The translations under genes were made by a program, and so were the position numbers. From contig JBOEGF010000006.1 of assembly GCA_050633305.1 (NCBI GenBank), forward strand, positions 106,480-170,479: a stretch of 64,000 bases of DNA, in the 5' to 3' direction. The stretch is from Nannocystales bacterium. Lineage in GTDB: Bacteria; Myxococcota_A; Polyangia; Nannocystales; Nannocystaceae. Of the stretch, positions 24,446 to 30,916 are shown in pieces; position 1 is the stretch's first letter, and the number at the start of each line of letters is the position of its first letter. A model generated the notes under the pieces. It was not told the origin of the DNA, searched no databases, and saw only the letters and a list, made by a program, of their open reading frames with translations.

Positions 24446-24868
24446 TCAGGTGGGCGCCGAGAGGCACTCGGGGCAGGTGCCGCGCAGCTGCAGTGTCGCG
24501 CCGCGAACGGAACTCGACCACGGTCCATCGATCTGGATGGACGTGGTGAGCTCGCGCGGCAGGCAGGCGAGCCGGCCGCAGTCTTCGCAGACGAAGTGCG
24601 CGTGCGCGTGCGCTTCTTCGGACGCCAGAGCATAGCAATCCGTGCCCTCGACCCGACTGACGATCCGCGCGAGCCCCGACTCCCGCAGCTTGACGAGGTT
24701 GCGATAGACGGTCGTGCGTTCCCAATCCGTCTCGCCGAGGCGCTCGAAGACCTGACGACAGGACAGCGGGTCCTCTGCGCCGGACAGAATGCGCATCACG
24801 GCGAGGCGGGGCCCGGTCGCCCGGAGTCCGCGCGTTCGCAGGCGCTCGCGCGCTTCGCCTCGTGTCAT
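24446..24868 (-). CDS. Fur-family (Zur-like) transcriptional regulator
   Basis: GLRATGPRLAV, TTVYRNL, HAHAHFVCEDCG, CPEC; start re-picked at ATG 24868. Confidence 0.92.
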   Translation of the reverse strand: MTRGEARERLRTRGLRATGPRLAVMRILSGAEDPLSCRQVFERLGETDWERTTVYRNLVKLRESGLARIVSRVEGTDCYALASEEAHAHAHFVCEDCGRLACLPRELTTSIQIDGPWSSSVRGATLQLRGTCPECLSAPT

Positions 24869-24929
24869 TTCTTGGGGCACGACAGCACCCTCGGACTGCG
24901 GTCGCGTGGCGTGGGTTCTTCGCATCCTG

Positions 24930-25631
24930 TCATCCTGCGCACGGGCACGCCGCGCACTCGCGAACACTCGAGACACCGCAGTGTTCCTGCAAACGCGTCG
25001 CGAGCACCCGCCGAGCGCGGTGAAGCCGAACGGTGGCGTTGTTGGTCGAGATGCCGAGCGCTTTCGCGGCTTCGGCCACGGAAGCGTCGCCGAGGTCGAC
25101 GAGTTGGAGAATCGAGGCGTAGCTGTCCTTGATGCCCTCGGCGAGCACCAAGCTACAGCCGCAGCCCGGATCGTCAGCGAGGGGCTGCTCCTCGACTCGT
25201 TGAAGGTGTGAAGCGACCTTCAGCGCCCGACGCTCGCTCCCCTGCCTGCGGATGGCATCGGCGATCGCGTTTCGGTGAACACGGAACAACCACGCATCCA
25301 AGCGACCCGGGTCGCGTAGGGTCTCGGCGCGCTCGAGCGCACGAACGGCTGCGGTCTGGAGGACGTCGTCAACCAGACTGCCATCAACCCTGCGAGCGAC
25401 AAACGCCGCAAGGCTTCTGTGCAGCCGCCGCAGGCCGCTGGAGACGAGTTCAACGCTCGCCCGAGCTGTCGAGTCCGCTCTCAAGGGGTCAGCGTTGCTT
25501 GGGTGGACAGCCGCAGGTTGGACCACATTCGCACGACCCGGCGCAGGTGCAGCGCGGCCCGCAACAGCAGTTGGGCTGCTCGGGTTCTCGACGCTCGCAG
25601 GAGCAACGGTTGGTACAGCGGTCACAAGCAC
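24930..25631 (-). CDS. ECF sigma factor with CxC linker and Cys-rich C-terminus (CorE-like)
   Basis: sigma2 (DDVLQ...AWLFRVHRNAIAD), CGC linker, sigma4 (GISTNNATVRLHRAR), tail HCGVSSVRECAACPC. True start is probably downstream of 25631. Confidence 0.85.
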   Translation of the reverse strand: MLVTAVPTVAPASVENPSSPTAVAGRAAPAPGRANVVQPAAVHPSNADPLRADSTARASVELVSSGLRRLHRSLAAFVARRVDGSLVDDVLQTAAVRALERAETLRDPGRLDAWLFRVHRNAIADAIRRQGSERRALKVASHLQRVEEQPLADDPGCGCSLVLAEGIKDSYASILQLVDLGDASVAEAAKALGISTNNATVRLHRARRVLATRLQEHCGVSSVRECAACPCAG

Positions 25632-25792
25632 AGATTTGGTTCGGTTTCATGGGGCTCCTGGCGGTGGCGAACTTGGGTTCTCAGCTCGCTCGTTCAGGCT
25701 GACGCTCGACCCGTCGCGATTCTTACAGTTCGGGTTCCCTGCCGGCGCCCCGGTGTTGCAAAACGTCGGCATATGACTATAACTTGCAGCAC

Positions 25793-26233
25793 GTGACCGC
25801 GCCATCGGCCCCTCGGGTCCCCCCCCAGCTCGACCGCCTCGGGCTTGTGGCGAGCACCGCATGTGCGCTCCATTGCGCGGCGACAGCTCTGGTCCCGACC
25901 GTCCTTGCCCTGCTCGGCGCCTCCGCCCTGCTCGACCATGAAGCGGAGTGGGTCTTCACGGTCCTGGCGGTCGGTGTCGCCAGCCTTGCGCTCGCCCTCG
26001 GGTGGCGCAGGCATGGCGCCAGCATGGCGACACTGGCACTGAGCCTGGGCATTGTCGGGCTGCTGTGCGCACGGGTGCTCGAGGAGGGTGGGCACGGGCA
26101 TGGCCTTGGGCTCGCCGTCAGCCTCTTGTCGGGCGGTGCACTCGTCACGGGGCACATCCTCAACCTCCGGCGAACCCCCGCGGCGGCGCCCGAACCCGAG
26201 TCGGCACCTGAGCCGTGCTGCGTGCCCGAGTGA
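25793..26233 (+). CDS. MerC-domain membrane protein
   Basis: LDRLGLVASTACALHC, GWRRH, GHILN; four TM segments; HGHG loop and C-terminal CC. Confidence 0.85.
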   Translation: MTAPSAPRVPPQLDRLGLVASTACALHCAATALVPTVLALLGASALLDHEAEWVFTVLAVGVASLALALGWRRHGASMATLALSLGIVGLLCARVLEEGGHGHGLGLAVSLLSGGALVTGHILNLRRTPAAAPEPESAPEPCCVPE

Positions 26234-26361
26234 AAGCTCCGTCGGGTACGTGAGACGCCCGACGCGCGCTCGGTGGTCGCCCTAGGCAGGCCGCCGTCGA
26301 CCTCCGCACGAGACGCGCGTCTGCCGCCTAGGGCAGGCCGGTGCGCGTCGATACGCAGATG

Positions 26362-26403
26362 ATATGCAACACAAATCGAGTTGCATATGCCACCTGCTTG
26401 CAT
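26362..26403. promoter_or_regulatory. Putative Zur/Fur-family operator
   Basis: Perfect inverted repeat ATATGCAAC-N9-GTTGCATAT (26362-26388) overlapping ATGCCAC-N3-CTTGCAT (26387-26403), in an AT-rich patch just before the His-rich lipoprotein. Confidence 0.6.
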
Positions 26404-26417
26404 TAGAGACGTCGATC

Positions 26418-27125
26418 ATGAACTGGAAAACGCTTCTGGCCACTTGCCTGATCGCTACGCTCCCGCTCGGCTGTGACTCGGATGGCGACGACGACCACGA
26501 CGCAGACACGGAGCACCACCACGACACCGAGGGTGACAGTGACGAAAGCGAAGGCCACGACACCGAGCACGATCACGGTGAGACGGAGCTGATCACCACG
26601 GTCACGCTCACCTTCACGTCGGACACCGCAGACACGGTCACCGCAGCCTTCAGCGATCCCGACGGCGACGGCGGGATGTCTGGCTCGTCCGACCCCGTTG
26701 TGCTCGCCCCGGACACGACCTACGCCCTGTCGGTCGAGTTCACGAACGAGCTCGAGCAACCCGCCGAGGACATCACCGAAGAGGTCCGGGAGGAGGCCGA
26801 GGAGCACCAGGTCTTCATCTACGGCAGCTCGGTCACCGGACCCGCGTCGATGGGAGACGGCCTCCTGACGCATGCCTACACGGACTTGGAGTCCGACTAC
26901 ACCGAGAACACGGTCGGCGACGACCTTCCGGTTGGACTGGTCAGCTCGATCACGACCGGCGCCGCCAGCACAGAGACCGGTGAACTCGAGGTCATGCTCC
27001 GACACCTTCCCGACGTCAACGGAAACCCGGTCAAGACCAGTGACCTCAGTGCAGTCCTCGCGGCTGGCGACGCTCTTCCCGGCGATGTCGACGCGAATGT
27101 GCACTTCGACGTCACTGTGCAATGA
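26418..27125 (+). CDS. His/Asp-rich putative metal-binding lipoprotein
   Basis: Lipobox PLGC; DHDADTEHHHD...HDTEHDHG tract; ELITTVTLTF, DPDGDGG, EEHQVF and LRH motifs. Confidence 0.8.
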   Translation: MNWKTLLATCLIATLPLGCDSDGDDDHDADTEHHHDTEGDSDESEGHDTEHDHGETELITTVTLTFTSDTADTVTAAFSDPDGDGGMSGSSDPVVLAPDTTYALSVEFTNELEQPAEDITEEVREEAEEHQVFIYGSSVTGPASMGDGLLTHAYTDLESDYTENTVGDDLPVGLVSSITTGAASTETGELEVMLRHLPDVNGNPVKTSDLSAVLAAGDALPGDVDANVHFDVTVQ

Positions 27126-27207
27126 TCCATCACGGCCGCTGCGCCGTAGAAACGGCGCGTTGACCGGCGAGGTAGACCGACCCCGAACTGAACCCACCGA
27201 GGCCTAC

Positions 27208-28803
27208 GTGCCGCAGGTGGGTTCGTCCGTGGTTGCGCCGACGCAGGTTTTCCAAGCGACGAGTTCCCCCTCCGGGGCTCCGCCGGCCCTTCCCTCCACA
27301 CCGCACACGCAGGTCGGGGGGCCCCAAGCGGCGGCCCTCGTCCCGGATTCGGCCCCGCTTCTCGACGACCGCGAGCACTACCTCGCCCGTGTCGATCACC
27401 GAGCGACGGTCGGGCGTATGCGAACGCTGGTCCCCGCCGCGGCGCTGGGATGGATCGCGTTCTTCTCGCTCGACCTCGTGGTCGCGCTGTGGGTCTTCCC
27501 CACGGACATCCTGCCGTTCGTCCTTCTTCGACTGGCAGGACTCGTCGTCCTGTTGCTCGCGGGCTTCATCCTCCGGCGAACCGCGGCGCCCTCCGGGGCG
27601 CTGGTGACCGCGCTGGACACGTCGATGATGGTGGCGACCGCGGGGTGCTTGAGTCTGATGGGGCTGTTCGCCGGCGGTGTCGCCAGCCCCTACCACGCGT
27701 TCGTGGTGTTGGTGTTGCTCGGTCGCGCGGCCGTGCTCCCGCATCGATGGCAGGAGGGGATGTGGCGACTCGCAATTCCAGCGCTCGTCGACCCCGTGGT
27801 TCTGGGCATTGCGAGTCTCGCGGTGCCTTCGATCGGGGCGCAATGGCTCGACCCCGCCGCCCGCGGGACCTACGTCTTCTACGCGGCGCTCCTCGTCGGC
27901 GCGTGGACGCTGGTCGTCGTCGGAAGTCACCACGCGTGGGCGTTGCGTCGCCAGGTGTTTGCGTCGCGAAACCTCGGACGGTTCAAACTTCGCCACCGCA
28001 TTGGCCAAGGCGGGATGGGCGAGGTTTGGGTGGCACGAGACGAGCAACTGCGGCGAGACGTTGCGCTCAAGGTGCTCCGGCCGAGCGAACACGAAGATGA
28101 AGAGGCGGTGGCCCGCTTCGAGCGCGAGATTCGAGCCACCGCGGCATTGCGTCATCCCAACACGATCCGGATCTTCAGCCACGGCGTGAGTGAAGACGGG
28201 CTCCGGTACTACGCGATGGAGCTGCTGGAGGGCGAGACGCTCCAAGGCCTTGTGCAGCGTGTCGGGCCGCTTCCCCCCGAGCGAGCCGTCTTCTTGCTTC
28301 ACCAGGCGTCGCGCGCTCTGTCCGAGGCGCACGCCCGCGGCATCGTCCACCGAGACGTCAAGCCCGAGAACCTTTTCGTCACCGCATTGGGTGGCGAACC
28401 CGATGTCGTCAAGGTTCTCGACTTCGGCATCGTGCGGATGTCCGAAGACGACGTCGGCCTGACCTCGACCGGCTTCGTCGCGGGCACGCCCGCGTACATG
28501 GCCCCCGAGGTCGCGACCGGCGAGCCCGCAACCCCGGCCGCCGACGTCTACGCGCTGGGTGCGACGCTGTACTTCGCGCTGACCGGTGGCCCCCCGTTCG
28601 ATGGCGCCGACGCGGCCAGTGTGCTGCACCAACACGTGAACACGCCGACCCCGCGCTTGGCGTCACGCATGCACACCCCGATCGCCCCGGCCCTCGAGCG
28701 GGTGTGCATGTGCGCGCTCACCAAAGACCCGCAGAAGCGGTTCGAGGGGGCGGCAGACTTTGCCGCGGCGCTCGAACGAGCCGTCCGCCCAGGGCCCGCG
28801 TGA
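27208..28803 (+). CDS. Membrane-bound Ser/Thr protein kinase
   Basis: About five TM helices followed by [30 protein letters not shown]; start uncertain. Confidence 0.93.
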
Positions 28804-28848: not shown

Positions 28849-29961
28849 GTGAGAGCCTCCCTCGCGCTCCTGCTGCCCTGCGTCCTCTTGTTGCCTGGTT
28901 GTAGCGACAGCCGGCGAAACGTGAAGCGGGCGCCCGGACATCCAGACGTGTTCGCCACGAAGTTGTTCGAGGAAACCCAGATGCTCGCCGCCGAGCAGCT
29001 CGACCCCGCCTCGGCGTGCGAGCGCTGGCAAGGCGCCGCGTGGTGCCAGGCCCTCATCAGCGGCTGGAGCTTCGTCCCCGAGACGCTGGAGGTCTGCGGC
29101 GCGGAGGCAGACGAAGCGGCGGTGACCGATTGCCTCTCCCGCACCGCGAACCGCGAGTTCTCCCCACTGGGGCTGGAAACCTGCGCGGGCCTGCAGACGC
29201 CCAAGCACCGCTACACCTGCCTCAACGCGGTCGCGGATCGCCACTTGGAGACACCGCAGTACCTGTACTGCGCACAAAAGCCATCGAAGAAGGTGGCGGG
29301 CTGTCTCGCCGACGCTCACGAATACAAATTCCACCCCGACGAACTCCAGCGCATCGTCCAGCGCACGACCGAGGACACGCCAACAACCGACCCTCGCACG
29401 CTCATCGGCAACCTCGAGAACAACGTGGCCGACGCCTACGCGCTCGACCGGAGCGAGTGGCCCGAGCATTACATCTTCAACTTCGCTGGCGGAGCCACCA
29501 CCCACATCCGGGCGATGTACTGCGCGCTGGATGAGTATCTGCTGATCGTCGGCGCGCCGATCAACGTCAATGGGTACTCCGGCCGCTATCCCGCCGAAGT
29601 CCACGATTTCGTGTTCACCGGCCTCATGCATGACTTCGAAGAACACGACTTCGAACAACACGACTTCACCGCCGGTGCGTGGGCCTATCTCCCCCACGGC
29701 GGACACCGGGTCTACGCCACAGAAACCCCGACCTACATGCTGGAGTACGCGCGCGGCTCGGTCCCCGGCATGCTCAACTTCGGGATCCGGCATCCGCGCT
29801 ACTCGATCACCCGCGACCGCAAGAACATGAAGCAGCAGGTCCGGATGTGCGCAAGCCGTGCCTTGGCTGCGAACAGGGCCAACCGGAAGCAACGCCGCTC
29901 GCTGCGACAAACGAAGCGGAAGACGATCCGAGAGATCCGCCGGGCCCTTCGCGGTCTGTAG
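28849..29961 (+). CDS. Lipoprotein: Cys-rich N-domain plus ERG2/sigma-1 receptor-like domain
   Basis: Lipobox LPGC; YKFHPDEL, IFNFAGG, DEYLLIVG, GYSGRYPAEVHD and YMLEYARGSVP match ERG2/sigma-1 motifs in order. Confidence 0.8.
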   Translation: MRASLALLLPCVLLLPGCSDSRRNVKRAPGHPDVFATKLFEETQMLAAEQLDPASACERWQGAAWCQALISGWSFVPETLEVCGAEADEAAVTDCLSRTANREFSPLGLETCAGLQTPKHRYTCLNAVADRHLETPQYLYCAQKPSKKVAGCLADAHEYKFHPDELQRIVQRTTEDTPTTDPRTLIGNLENNVADAYALDRSEWPEHYIFNFAGGATTHIRAMYCALDEYLLIVGAPINVNGYSGRYPAEVHDFVFTGLMHDFEEHDFEQHDFTAGAWAYLPHGGHRVYATETPTYMLEYARGSVPGMLNFGIRHPRYSITRDRKNMKQQVRMCASRALAANRANRKQRRSLRQTKRKTIREIRRALRGL

Positions 29962-30106: not shown

Positions 30107-30916
30107 ATGGATCTGCTGTCCGTCGAGAACTTCGCCAACCTGGGCGTGCTGCTGTTTCTGCAAGCCGTACTCGGGTTCGACAACCTCCTGTACATCGCGA
30201 TCGAGTCTAAACGAGCTCCTGAGGAACATCAGCAGGCCGTCCGACGCAACGCGATCCTGATCGCGATCGCCCTGCGGGTCGTGCTGCTGTTCGTGATGGT
30301 GAGCCTCATCGACCGCTTCGAAGAGCCGTTCTTCGTCGTGGACAGCGGGCCCATCCATGGGGAATTCAACTTCCTGGTCATCGTGTTCCTGCTTGGCGGG
30401 GGATTCCTGATGTACACAGCCGTCAAGGAGATCGGGCACATGATGTCCATTGAGGACATCAGCGCAGATGTCACCGACGACGGCAAGAAGAAGACGGTGG
30501 GTCAGGTCATCTCGATGATCGTCTTGATGAACCTCATCTTCTCGTTCGATTCGATTCTCTCGGCTCTGGCCATCACCGATGTGTTCCCGGTGCTCGCGTT
30601 GGCGATTGTGGGCTCTGGACTGGCCATGCTGTTCCTCGCAGACCACGTCTCGGAGTTCCTGCGGAAGAACCGCAAGTACGAGGTCCTCGGGTTGTTCATC
30701 CTGCTGATCGTCGCCATCGTGCTTCTCGGCGAAGGAGGCCACACCGCCACGCTGACGCTGTGGGGGCACCACGTCGAGCCGCTCGCCAAGAGTACGTTCT
30801 ACTTCTCGATCGTCGTCTTGGTGGTCGTCGACATCATTCAGGGCCGATACCAGAAGAAACTCGCCGCCGAGCGTGCGCAGCAATCCGGGGCCGACAACAC
30901 AAGCCCCGCGGCATGA
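30107..30916 (+). CDS. TerC family membrane protein
   Basis: LQAVLGFDNL, MNLIFSFDSILSA. Confidence 0.92.
   Translation: MDLLSVENFANLGVLLFLQAVLGFDNLLYIAIESKRAPEEHQQAVRRNAILIAIALRVVLLFVMVSLIDRFEEPFFVVDSGPIHGEFNFLVIVFLLGGGFLMYTAVKEIGHMMSIEDISADVTDDGKKKTVGQVISMIVLMNLIFSFDSILSALAITDVFPVLALAIVGSGLAMLFLADHVSEFLRKNRKYEVLGLFILLIVAIVLLGEGGHTATLTLWGHHVEPLAKSTFYFSIVVLVVVDIIQGRYQKKLAAERAQQSGADNTSPAA

Follow-up and report, generated by a model that had tools for sequence, protein, structure and literature searches.

The sigma-1 receptor and the fungal sterol C8-C7 isomerase ERG2 belong to one protein family, in which Glu174 of yeast ERG2 corresponds to Glu172 of sigma-1 (PMC8230181; for this and all other cited sources, our statements refer to the part of the text that was available). 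Sigma-1 keeps Glu172 and Asp126 and yet has no detectable isomerase activity (10.1101/333765). Eight residues line the entrance of its pocket, and a gate role has been described for Tyr206 of the human and Tyr203 of the Xenopus receptor, the gate residue of the latter having been engineered to cysteine to test the entry route (PMC8913746). Progesterone is contacted by 11 residues of Xenopus sigma-1 (PMC11224282). Bacterial ERG2 homologues have been published as putative C-8 isomerases (PMC10202945; PMC7306690), with short homologues in Enhygromyxa salina and Calothrix; the E. salina gene was assigned by BLAST similarity, not by assay (PMC10202945). Binders of sterols in the bacterial envelope, one of them associated with the outer membrane, are known from Methylococcus (PMC10942540). 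Within the literature covered, which did not extend to subscription journals, we found no paper on an exported form of ERG2.

We analyzed a stretch of 64,000 nucleotides from a Nannocystales bacterium (the window; positions given alone refer to it) that encodes a probably exported member of this family. We refer to proteins that combine a signal, cysteine repeats, and the barrel as the long form, and to the bacterial homologues consisting of about 185 amino acids as the short form. The gene and its parts are as follows.

28849-29961, + strand: sigma-1/ERG2-family gene, open frame with GTG start, 370 amino acids
28836..28841, + strand: −10-like hexamer, 7 nt before the GTG, with no Shine-Dalgarno-like run in between
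28849..28902, + strand: signal peptide of lipoprotein type (residues 1-17), then the lipobox Cys18; Cys column filled in 17/19 rows
28903..29013, + strand: linker, residues 19-55; low model confidence at 16-24, variable among distant relatives
29014..29322, + strand: 29-residue helical repeat with two Cys, present four times (Cys 57/66, 83/95, 112/124, and 141/152)
29317..29856, + strand: ERG2/sigma-1 cupin domain, residues 157-336, Pfam ERG2_Sigma1R (PF04622)
29521..29523, + strand: Cys225, at the position of sigma-1 Ala98; likely disulfide partner of Cys334
29536-29538, + strand: Y230, aligned with human sigma-1 Tyr103
29605-29607, + strand: D253, aligned with human sigma-1 Asp126
29743-29745, + strand: E299, aligned with human sigma-1 Glu172
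29848..29850, + strand: Cys334 in helix alpha5, occupying the gate-tyrosine position of sigma-1 (human Tyr206, Xenopus Tyr203)
29857..29961, + strand: basic extension of helix alpha5 (residues 337-370) plus stop codon, ending in an amphipathic turn

The barrel is of the sigma-1/ERG2 family

A word-based search yielded 19 relatives of 301 to 416 amino acids with 32 to 88% identity to the query protein. Our 19-row alignment consists of the query and 18 of these relatives, with P0005, a later-start record, left out. The original prediction of a bacterial protein with an ERG2/sigma-1 domain was borne out by sequence and by fold. The Pfam model ERG2_Sigma1R matched with 111.6 bits (E 4.3e-32, cut-off 21) over profile positions 20 to 200 of 210, and the only PDB sequences matching below an E value of 0.2 were human and Xenopus sigma-1 chains (7e-12 to 4e-11). 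When an AlphaFold model made from the 19-row alignment (mean pLDDT 79.7; low at residues 16-24, 213-215, and 313-320) was searched with Foldseek, sigma-1 came first (E 1.6e-12, TM score 0.75 by target, 22% identity), and all listed ranks up to 28 were sigma-1 chains (E 1.6e-12 to 2.5e-11). A merely generic cupin was considered and rejected, the best other cupin appearing far below sigma-1 at 4.4e-6.

The acidic residues that had been matched to Asp126 and Glu172 of sigma-1 do align with them, as D253 and E299, and Tyr103 is also kept, as Y230 (human sigma-1 residue numbers are the PDB chain numbers less 4). All three are invariant in 19/19 rows, and E299 also in all 22 repeat-bearing proteins. 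At the progesterone-contact positions, four residues are identical in the query (Xenopus Tyr100, Leu102, Tyr117, and Phe181) and the other seven are non-polar (Ala, Ile, Ala, Val, Val, Gly, and Cys), as are all eight entrance-lining positions. Side chains are smaller at the steroid-contact positions A222, V234, and C334, and H219 and R221 are new invariant polar residues near the pocket. The comparison of long with short barrels covered 9 rows of the former and 36 of the latter; the pattern missed L022 and L015. The Asp126 spacing of sigma-1 is found in the query and in 38 of 101 short forms taken from the best 120 of 728 matches, and the Asp lies two residues earlier in the fungal protein P0021 and in 63 of the 101. 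Because 38 short forms share it, this spacing does not diagnose loss of catalysis.

Like sigma-1 (human PDB entries 5HK1, 6DJZ, and 6DK0; Xenopus 7W2B, 8W4B, and 8WUE), the protein combines a cupin barrel with an alpha4/alpha5 lid, has Tyr103, Asp126, and Glu172 with their spacing, and is non-polar at the entrance and steroid-contact positions. Unlike sigma-1, it has no transmembrane (TM) helix and begins with an 18-residue lipoprotein-type signal followed by four Cys repeats; the outer face of its alpha4/alpha5 helices is polar and basic (hydropathy −0.52), a Cys stands at the gate position Tyr206 and is matched by a second new Cys, and the C-terminal helix is long and basic. It also has Ala for Trp89 and Asn for Val84, as do the short bacterial forms. 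With fungal ERG2, it shares the Pfam family and the catalytic-position Glu. It differs from the sole fungal representative, the unnamed Cunninghamella protein P0021, in an Asp two residues later, in its separate clade on the barrel core, and in having no membrane anchor helix. P0021 itself contains a tandem pair of ERG2 domains and may be an annotation artifact that fuses two genes. With the short bacterial forms (P0079, P0103), the query shares Asn84, Ala89, Gly185, and a C-terminal Leu-Arg-Gly end, and both come from the same bacterial family; in the short forms, in contrast, alpha4/alpha5 is still hydrophobic and the gate residue still Tyr (98/101), and their match to sigma-1 is much stronger (E 1.5e-37). 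The protein is a member of PF04622 that lacks two defining features of sigma-1, the TM helix and the hydrophobic lid face.

Start site, signal peptide, and lipobox

The upstream Ser/Thr kinase gene stops 45 bp before the GTG, and the sigma-1/ERG2-family gene likely has its own leaderless promoter at the −10-like hexamer. The identical hexamer and spacing recur at 6/6 genus loci whose 5′ end is present, among them L059, which lacks the kinase beside the gene; a hexamer with such spacing was not seen in the three distant loci. A sigma-70 scan, which requires a −35 box, found no promoter before the gene. Across the host genome (G000), start codons are enriched 6 to 7 nt after −10-like hexamers: for 872 hexamer-class sites, ATG or GTG stood 6 and 7 nt downstream in 8.1% and 4.0% of cases, against 2 to 3.5% at most other distances and 5.6% at 12 nt. 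This enrichment points to frequent leaderless genes in the genome.

The signal has a basic n-region (Arg2), an h-region at residues 5 to 16, and Cys18. The lipobox, judged by eye and by pattern, reads L-P-G-C in the query and LAGC, LTGC, LSGC, or VAGC in its relatives; we take the Pro at −2 of the query to be atypical of the lipobox consensus. In agreement with the lipobox reported earlier, 17 of 19 aligned rows have a Cys in the column of Cys18, and the other two rows begin downstream of it. The relative in G011 and four of seven proteins of a sister branch (see below) have a hydrophobic signal without a lipobox. The protein is probably exported and lipidated at Cys18: beyond the lipobox Cys in these 17 rows, export is indicated by a signal that is kept though its type varies, by the occurrence of the repeat mostly in signal-bearing proteins, and by the confinement of a Cys pair to signal-bearing branches. 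Under the usual sorting rule, which may not hold in this group, the Ser at +2 would presumably place it in the outer membrane.

The original prediction also held that a lipobox and an eight-Cys domain had replaced the N-terminal TM helix. Both elements are there, but the replacement did not stand, since bacterial relatives have no such helix. None of the 101 short bacterial forms (from the best 120 of 728 matches) has an N-terminal hydrophobic window; among long records, 10 of 20 have one, and the other ten are later-start records or lie below the threshold. The signal and repeats were therefore added to an anchor-less bacterial protein, not swapped in.

Counted against three relatives, synonymous/non-synonymous codon changes were 62/13, 47/26, and 56/31 in the barrel, 26/29, 19/42, and 20/44 in the repeats, and 6/1 (versus L055), 4/7, and 3/11 in the signal. 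The barrel domain is under strong purifying selection. We give next to no credence to the idea that the N-terminal part is untranslated or that this is a decaying gene copy, which would make it an ordinary cytoplasmic ERG2. The GTG without a Shine-Dalgarno-like run, the presumably atypical Pro of the query lipobox, and the later starts annotated for 7 of 19 database relatives speak for it, but the gene is a single open frame with eight invariant Cys in 9/9 loci, the barrel domain starts without a Met, the barrel is under purifying selection and the signal conserved, the start context is conserved in 6/6 genus loci, and later-start records reach the full signal where genomic frames were read. 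The lipobox Cys column, the invariant repeat Cys, and the conserved start context place the lipobox region within the protein.

A cysteine repeat found in secreted proteins

The domain described earlier by its eight cysteines does hold eight, within residues 57 to 152, and could be resolved as four copies of the 29-residue repeat. These Cys are invariant in nine of nine genomic frames, as is the between-repeat spacing of 17 (9/9 loci), and they are likely disulfide-bonded. The model of the repeat domain is all-helical (pLDDT 93) and has no Foldseek match at E≤0.001 among solved structures; no Pfam family exists for it, and the repeat occurs once in the host genome. A search with a repeat profile yielded 404 proteins at E≤0.001 (median of 54 bits, versus a maximum of 23.7 for the reversed-sequence null), in which Cys spacings of 12 and 17 predominate. 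Among the 148 new repeat proteins listed (P0123-P0270), 128 have a signal-like N terminus by a crude hydropathy rule, two have an ERG2 domain, and most have no Pfam match. Some of these proteins are made up largely of the repeat. The query is a member of this unnamed, widespread family of secreted proteins, and its four repeats might form a rigid spacer or a docking arm.

A cysteine pair at the gate, an altered lid, and a basic tail

Cys334 aligns with residue 203 of the Xenopus sigma-1 chain, the gate position, which 98 of the 101 short forms fill with Tyr (short forms drawn from the best 120 of 728 matches). Two positions separate Cys225 from a lining residue of the entrance at the gate, the loop leucine. 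Both Cys are present in 22/22 repeat-bearing and 7/7 sister exported proteins; the pair occurs in none of the 101 short forms, again from the best 120 of 728 matches, of which 20 have the first Cys alone. Co-conservation of this kind makes a Cys225-Cys334 disulfide likely, and since these sequences are related and not independent, the count of 29/29 may reflect only one or two origins.

Over the 36 residues that follow the catalytic strand, the mean hydropathy of the long form is −0.52 (range −0.79 to −0.03, n = 20) versus +0.49 in the short forms (−0.10 to 0.99, n = 101; best 120 of 728 matches), with ranges that overlap only at their extremes, and the long-form alpha4/alpha5 carries about eight K/R in these 36 residues. 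On these figures, the outer, membrane-facing side of alpha4/alpha5 has turned polar and basic, with its hydrophobic face lost. The very basic tail that had been remarked on is confirmed by 14 K/R versus one D/E in residues 337 to 370, and 12 to 17 K/R follow the last Cys in 22/22 repeat-bearing proteins. The AlphaFold model has a single helix over residues 322 to 367, and the hydrophobic moment is 0.95 at residues 359 to 369. What is new in this branch is the Cys pair, confined to signal-bearing branches, together with the polar and basic membrane-facing helices.

Distribution and phylogeny

When all matches were read, the ERG2/sigma-1 domain was found in 43 of 72 family genomes, 10 of which have the long form (7/7 of the genus, one cut by a contig end, and G011, G020, and G076) and 33 the short form. 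The two forms occur together in 0/72 genomes against a naive expectation of 4.6, but the long form is confined to three genera; within genus g15, two genomes have the short form, two the long form, and two neither. A sample of 400 phylum genomes contained no full-length match and barrel-only matches in 32. The 22 repeat-bearing proteins found make a small family, whose carriers appear to be metagenome assemblies; all carriers with a genome lie in the sterol-producing family (10/72). At two loci, L085:2253-4256 (− strand; G063 C1) and L087 (G062 C1380), both from relatives, a second divergent short ERG2 adjoins an ERG4/ERG24 gene of high score.

The long form makes up one side of a branch in three trees (support 100/100, 85, and, on the barrel core alone, 97/91) and is separate there from the fungal-type clade; in the barrel-core tree it falls outside the clade holding the fungal P0021 (100/100; one fungal sequence). 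Its exact place is unsure owing to long branches, and the short, anchor-less form is likely ancestral. A sister branch of seven proteins (P0274-P0280) of about 230 amino acids, three with a lipobox and four with a plain signal, resembles the query in its signal, barrel, Cys pair, polar lid, and basic tail; it has no Cys repeats, and Glu172 is replaced by Asp in 7/7. One of its genes was located as follows.

L127:1480-2184, − strand: sister exported ERG2-like lipoprotein, genome G369

No cyclase or CYP51 match was found in G369, which is 96% complete, so the exported type appears not to be tied to sterol synthesis. The sister and repeat-bearing branches join at a weak 76/86, and their join may be a long-branch effect.

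Sterol genes of the host

The host genome (11.0 Mb, 92% complete) has a single ERG2-family match, which is the gene described here, and no canonical short ERG2 was found in it. The oxidosqualene cyclase that was to be looked for is present, as is CYP51. The cyclase has lanosterol synthase as its best PDB match (7.7e-111; hopene cyclase 2.7e-47) and scores 690 bits with TIGR03463, below the cut-off of 851. CYP51 matches at 2.5e-126, an SdmA-like Rieske protein scores 343 bits, under the cut-off of 600, and the one ERG4/ERG24 gene is ERG24-like (383 bits). All four lie on contigs other than this one. A fatty-acid-hydroxylase-family gene, likewise on another contig, we take to be C-5-desaturase-like from a motif. 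Our Pfam scan of the neighborhood covered eight ORFs around the gene, and the absence of sterol genes nearby says little, because sterol genes are dispersed in E. salina as well (PMC10202945).

The host also encodes a 161-amino-acid EXPERA protein (L026:1372-1857, + strand; G000 C16) that is equally weakly like sigma-2/TMEM97 and EBP; through its resemblance to sigma-2/TMEM97, both families of sigma receptors have relatives in G000. EXPERA matches were found in 22/60 relatives, and at L052 of one relative (G019 C82, about 79963-81894) an EXPERA gene adjoins a C-5-desaturase-like gene, a pairing that may hint at a function of bacterial EXPERA proteins in sterol metabolism. At L093/L003:310-2370 (+ strand; G000 C27) lies a degenerate squalene-cyclase-like gene that lacks the catalytic motif, and there are weak second cyclase-like matches of this type throughout the family. 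The supplement of PMC10202945 lists an "SHC-like cyclase" next to squalene monooxygenase.

These genes bear on the possibility that the protein is an extracytoplasmic sterol C8-C7 isomerase, which displaced the short cytoplasmic ERG2 and remodels sterols of the periplasm or outer membrane. Sterol C8-C7 isomerisation needs no cofactor, and such a location is thus not prohibitive. The gene is the sole one of its family in a genome with a cyclase, CYP51, and an ERG24-like reductase; the long and short forms exclude each other (0/72 versus 4.6 expected); Glu, Asp, and Tyr are invariant; and a cyclase-like gene (689 to 781 bits) and CYP51 were each found in 4/4 other carriers tested. We nevertheless consider this reading unlikely. 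Only about three independent lineages carry the long form, and a cyclase-family match is the family background (32/35). The barrel core is cut off from the clade holding the fungal P0021 (100/100), and the protein is of the sigma-1-like Asp126 type, unlike P0021. A strict search found a close C-5-desaturase-like match in 0/6 other genus genomes, and a re-test gave only paralogues of 25 to 30% in four genomes and none in G011, which leaves such a gene in 3/10 carriers (G000, G020, and G076), the putative label resting on the motif. Genus g17, with a C-5-desaturase-like gene in 11/11 genomes and no ERG2-family match, makes co-occurrence a weak test. ERG4/ERG24 is single in 9/10 carriers and missing in one, so that most have no evident step requiring a delta-7 sterol. 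The membrane-embedded face is lost, and the sister branch occurs in G369, a genome without sterol genes found.

Gene neighborhood

The two genes flanking the sigma-1/ERG2-family gene are as follows.

27130..28803, + strand: Hanks-type Ser/Thr kinase (Pkinase 148 bits), start uncertain
30107..30916, + strand: TerC-family membrane protein (Pfam TerC 116 bits), a variable neighbor

The kinase has about five hydrophobic segments with short loops between them. The possible link to this membrane kinase that was raised at first found little support, and we consider it highly improbable that the sigma-1/ERG2 protein is the ligand-sensing subunit of the kinase 45 bp upstream. The two genes adjoin on the same strand here and in 4/5 genus relatives with upstream DNA, and a kinase with only short loops could need a separate sensor. 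However, the kinase is missing beside the gene in one of these five relatives (L059) and in 3/3 distant carriers (G011, G020, and G076), other neighbors are equally syntenic within the genus, and the genome holds 88 kinase-motif frames. The promoter-like hexamer directly before the start codon is conserved and persists where the kinase is gone, which argues for separate transcription. The kinase is thus unlikely to form a functional pair with the gene.

The TerC gene is partial, displaced, or missing in L055, L057, L058, and L059. Further upstream (24446-27125) lie a Fur-like regulator, an ECF sigma factor, a 149-amino-acid membrane protein, and a His/Asp-rich lipoprotein without a Pfam match; as a group they resemble genes for metal uptake or sensing. 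The His/Asp-rich lipoprotein is upstream in 5/5 genus relatives with upstream DNA.

Proposed function

The original prediction had offered an extracytoplasmic sterol isomerase or a sterol/amine-binding receptor. Its binding branch fits best, and the isomerase branch is less likely. Our tentative explanation, which we hold to be plausible though short of probable, is that the protein binds or carries sterol-like ligands in the envelope rather than working within the cytoplasmic sterol pathway. With the hydrophobic face lost, attachment to the membrane would fall to the lipid anchor and the basic helix, and the Cys225-Cys334 bond would staple alpha5 to the barrel at the position of the sigma-1 gate tyrosine. 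The ligand, a sterol or steroid that the cell makes itself or obtains from prey, could enter between alpha4 and alpha5 and be held by the hydrophobic lining together with Y230, D253, and E299. A binder without catalysis has a precedent in sigma-1, since this receptor keeps the acidic residues, has no detectable isomerase activity, and shares its Asp126 spacing with our protein. The role and place proposed here are also those of BstB and BstC of Methylococcus capsulatus, which bind sterols in the periplasm and at the outer membrane; these belong to unrelated families (PhnD-like and TPAT T-component), are encoded with sterol genes, and have had their binding measured (PMC10942540). Against a binder stands the mutual exclusion of the two forms in the 72 genomes searched (no short ERG2 in the 10 long-form genomes, no long form in the 33 short-form ones), as expected for replacement; the invariant E299 and purifying selection, too, fit an enzyme equally well.

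The ligand may also be something other than a sterol, as H219, R221, and the smaller A222, V234, and C334 may indicate. Beyond the cytoplasm, the protein might then bind or rearrange a hydrophobic or cationic compound that is no sterol, such as an amine-bearing metabolite of prey or competitors, and would use its acidic pocket as sigma-1 does for amine drugs. Sigma-1 binds amines through Glu172 (10.1101/333765), the long form stands on a long branch from all short forms, its pocket has altered positions and new invariant His and Arg residues, and the sister branch has changed Glu to Asp in 7/7, in a genome without sterol genes found. Against this, all repeat-bearing carriers with a genome lie in the sterol-producing family (10/72), the 400 sampled phylum genomes gave no further full-length match, the steroid-contact positions are still non-polar, and no conserved partner gene points to another substrate; we therefore find a non-sterol ligand quite unlikely and keep the envelope binder of sterol-like molecules as our preferred reading.

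Significance

Two questions attach to this family: how an ERG2-type isomerase became the non-catalytic sigma-1, and how ligands enter a closed pocket. The exported branch is a natural experiment on both, having kept the pocket, dropped the membrane-embedded surface, and placed a conserved Cys at the gate residue. If the protein folds without detergent, it would be an easy model for binding and entry assays. The repeat fused to it is a widespread secreted module with neither a Pfam family nor a Foldseek match among solved structures. The protein is, moreover, a candidate for myxobacterial sterol handling outside the cytoplasm, which was named as unresolved in the available text of PMC12004948. 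In a bolder version, which we judge somewhat unlikely, the ERG2/sigma-1 fold has been turned into a detergent-free, disulfide-stapled envelope protein that, in sterol-making Nannocystaceae, displaced the cytoplasmic ERG2 and isomerizes or senses sterols of the periplasm or outer membrane. If true, bacteria would modify or sense sterols beyond their cytoplasm, and the transition from isomerase to receptor that gave rise to sigma-1 would have happened a second time, independently.
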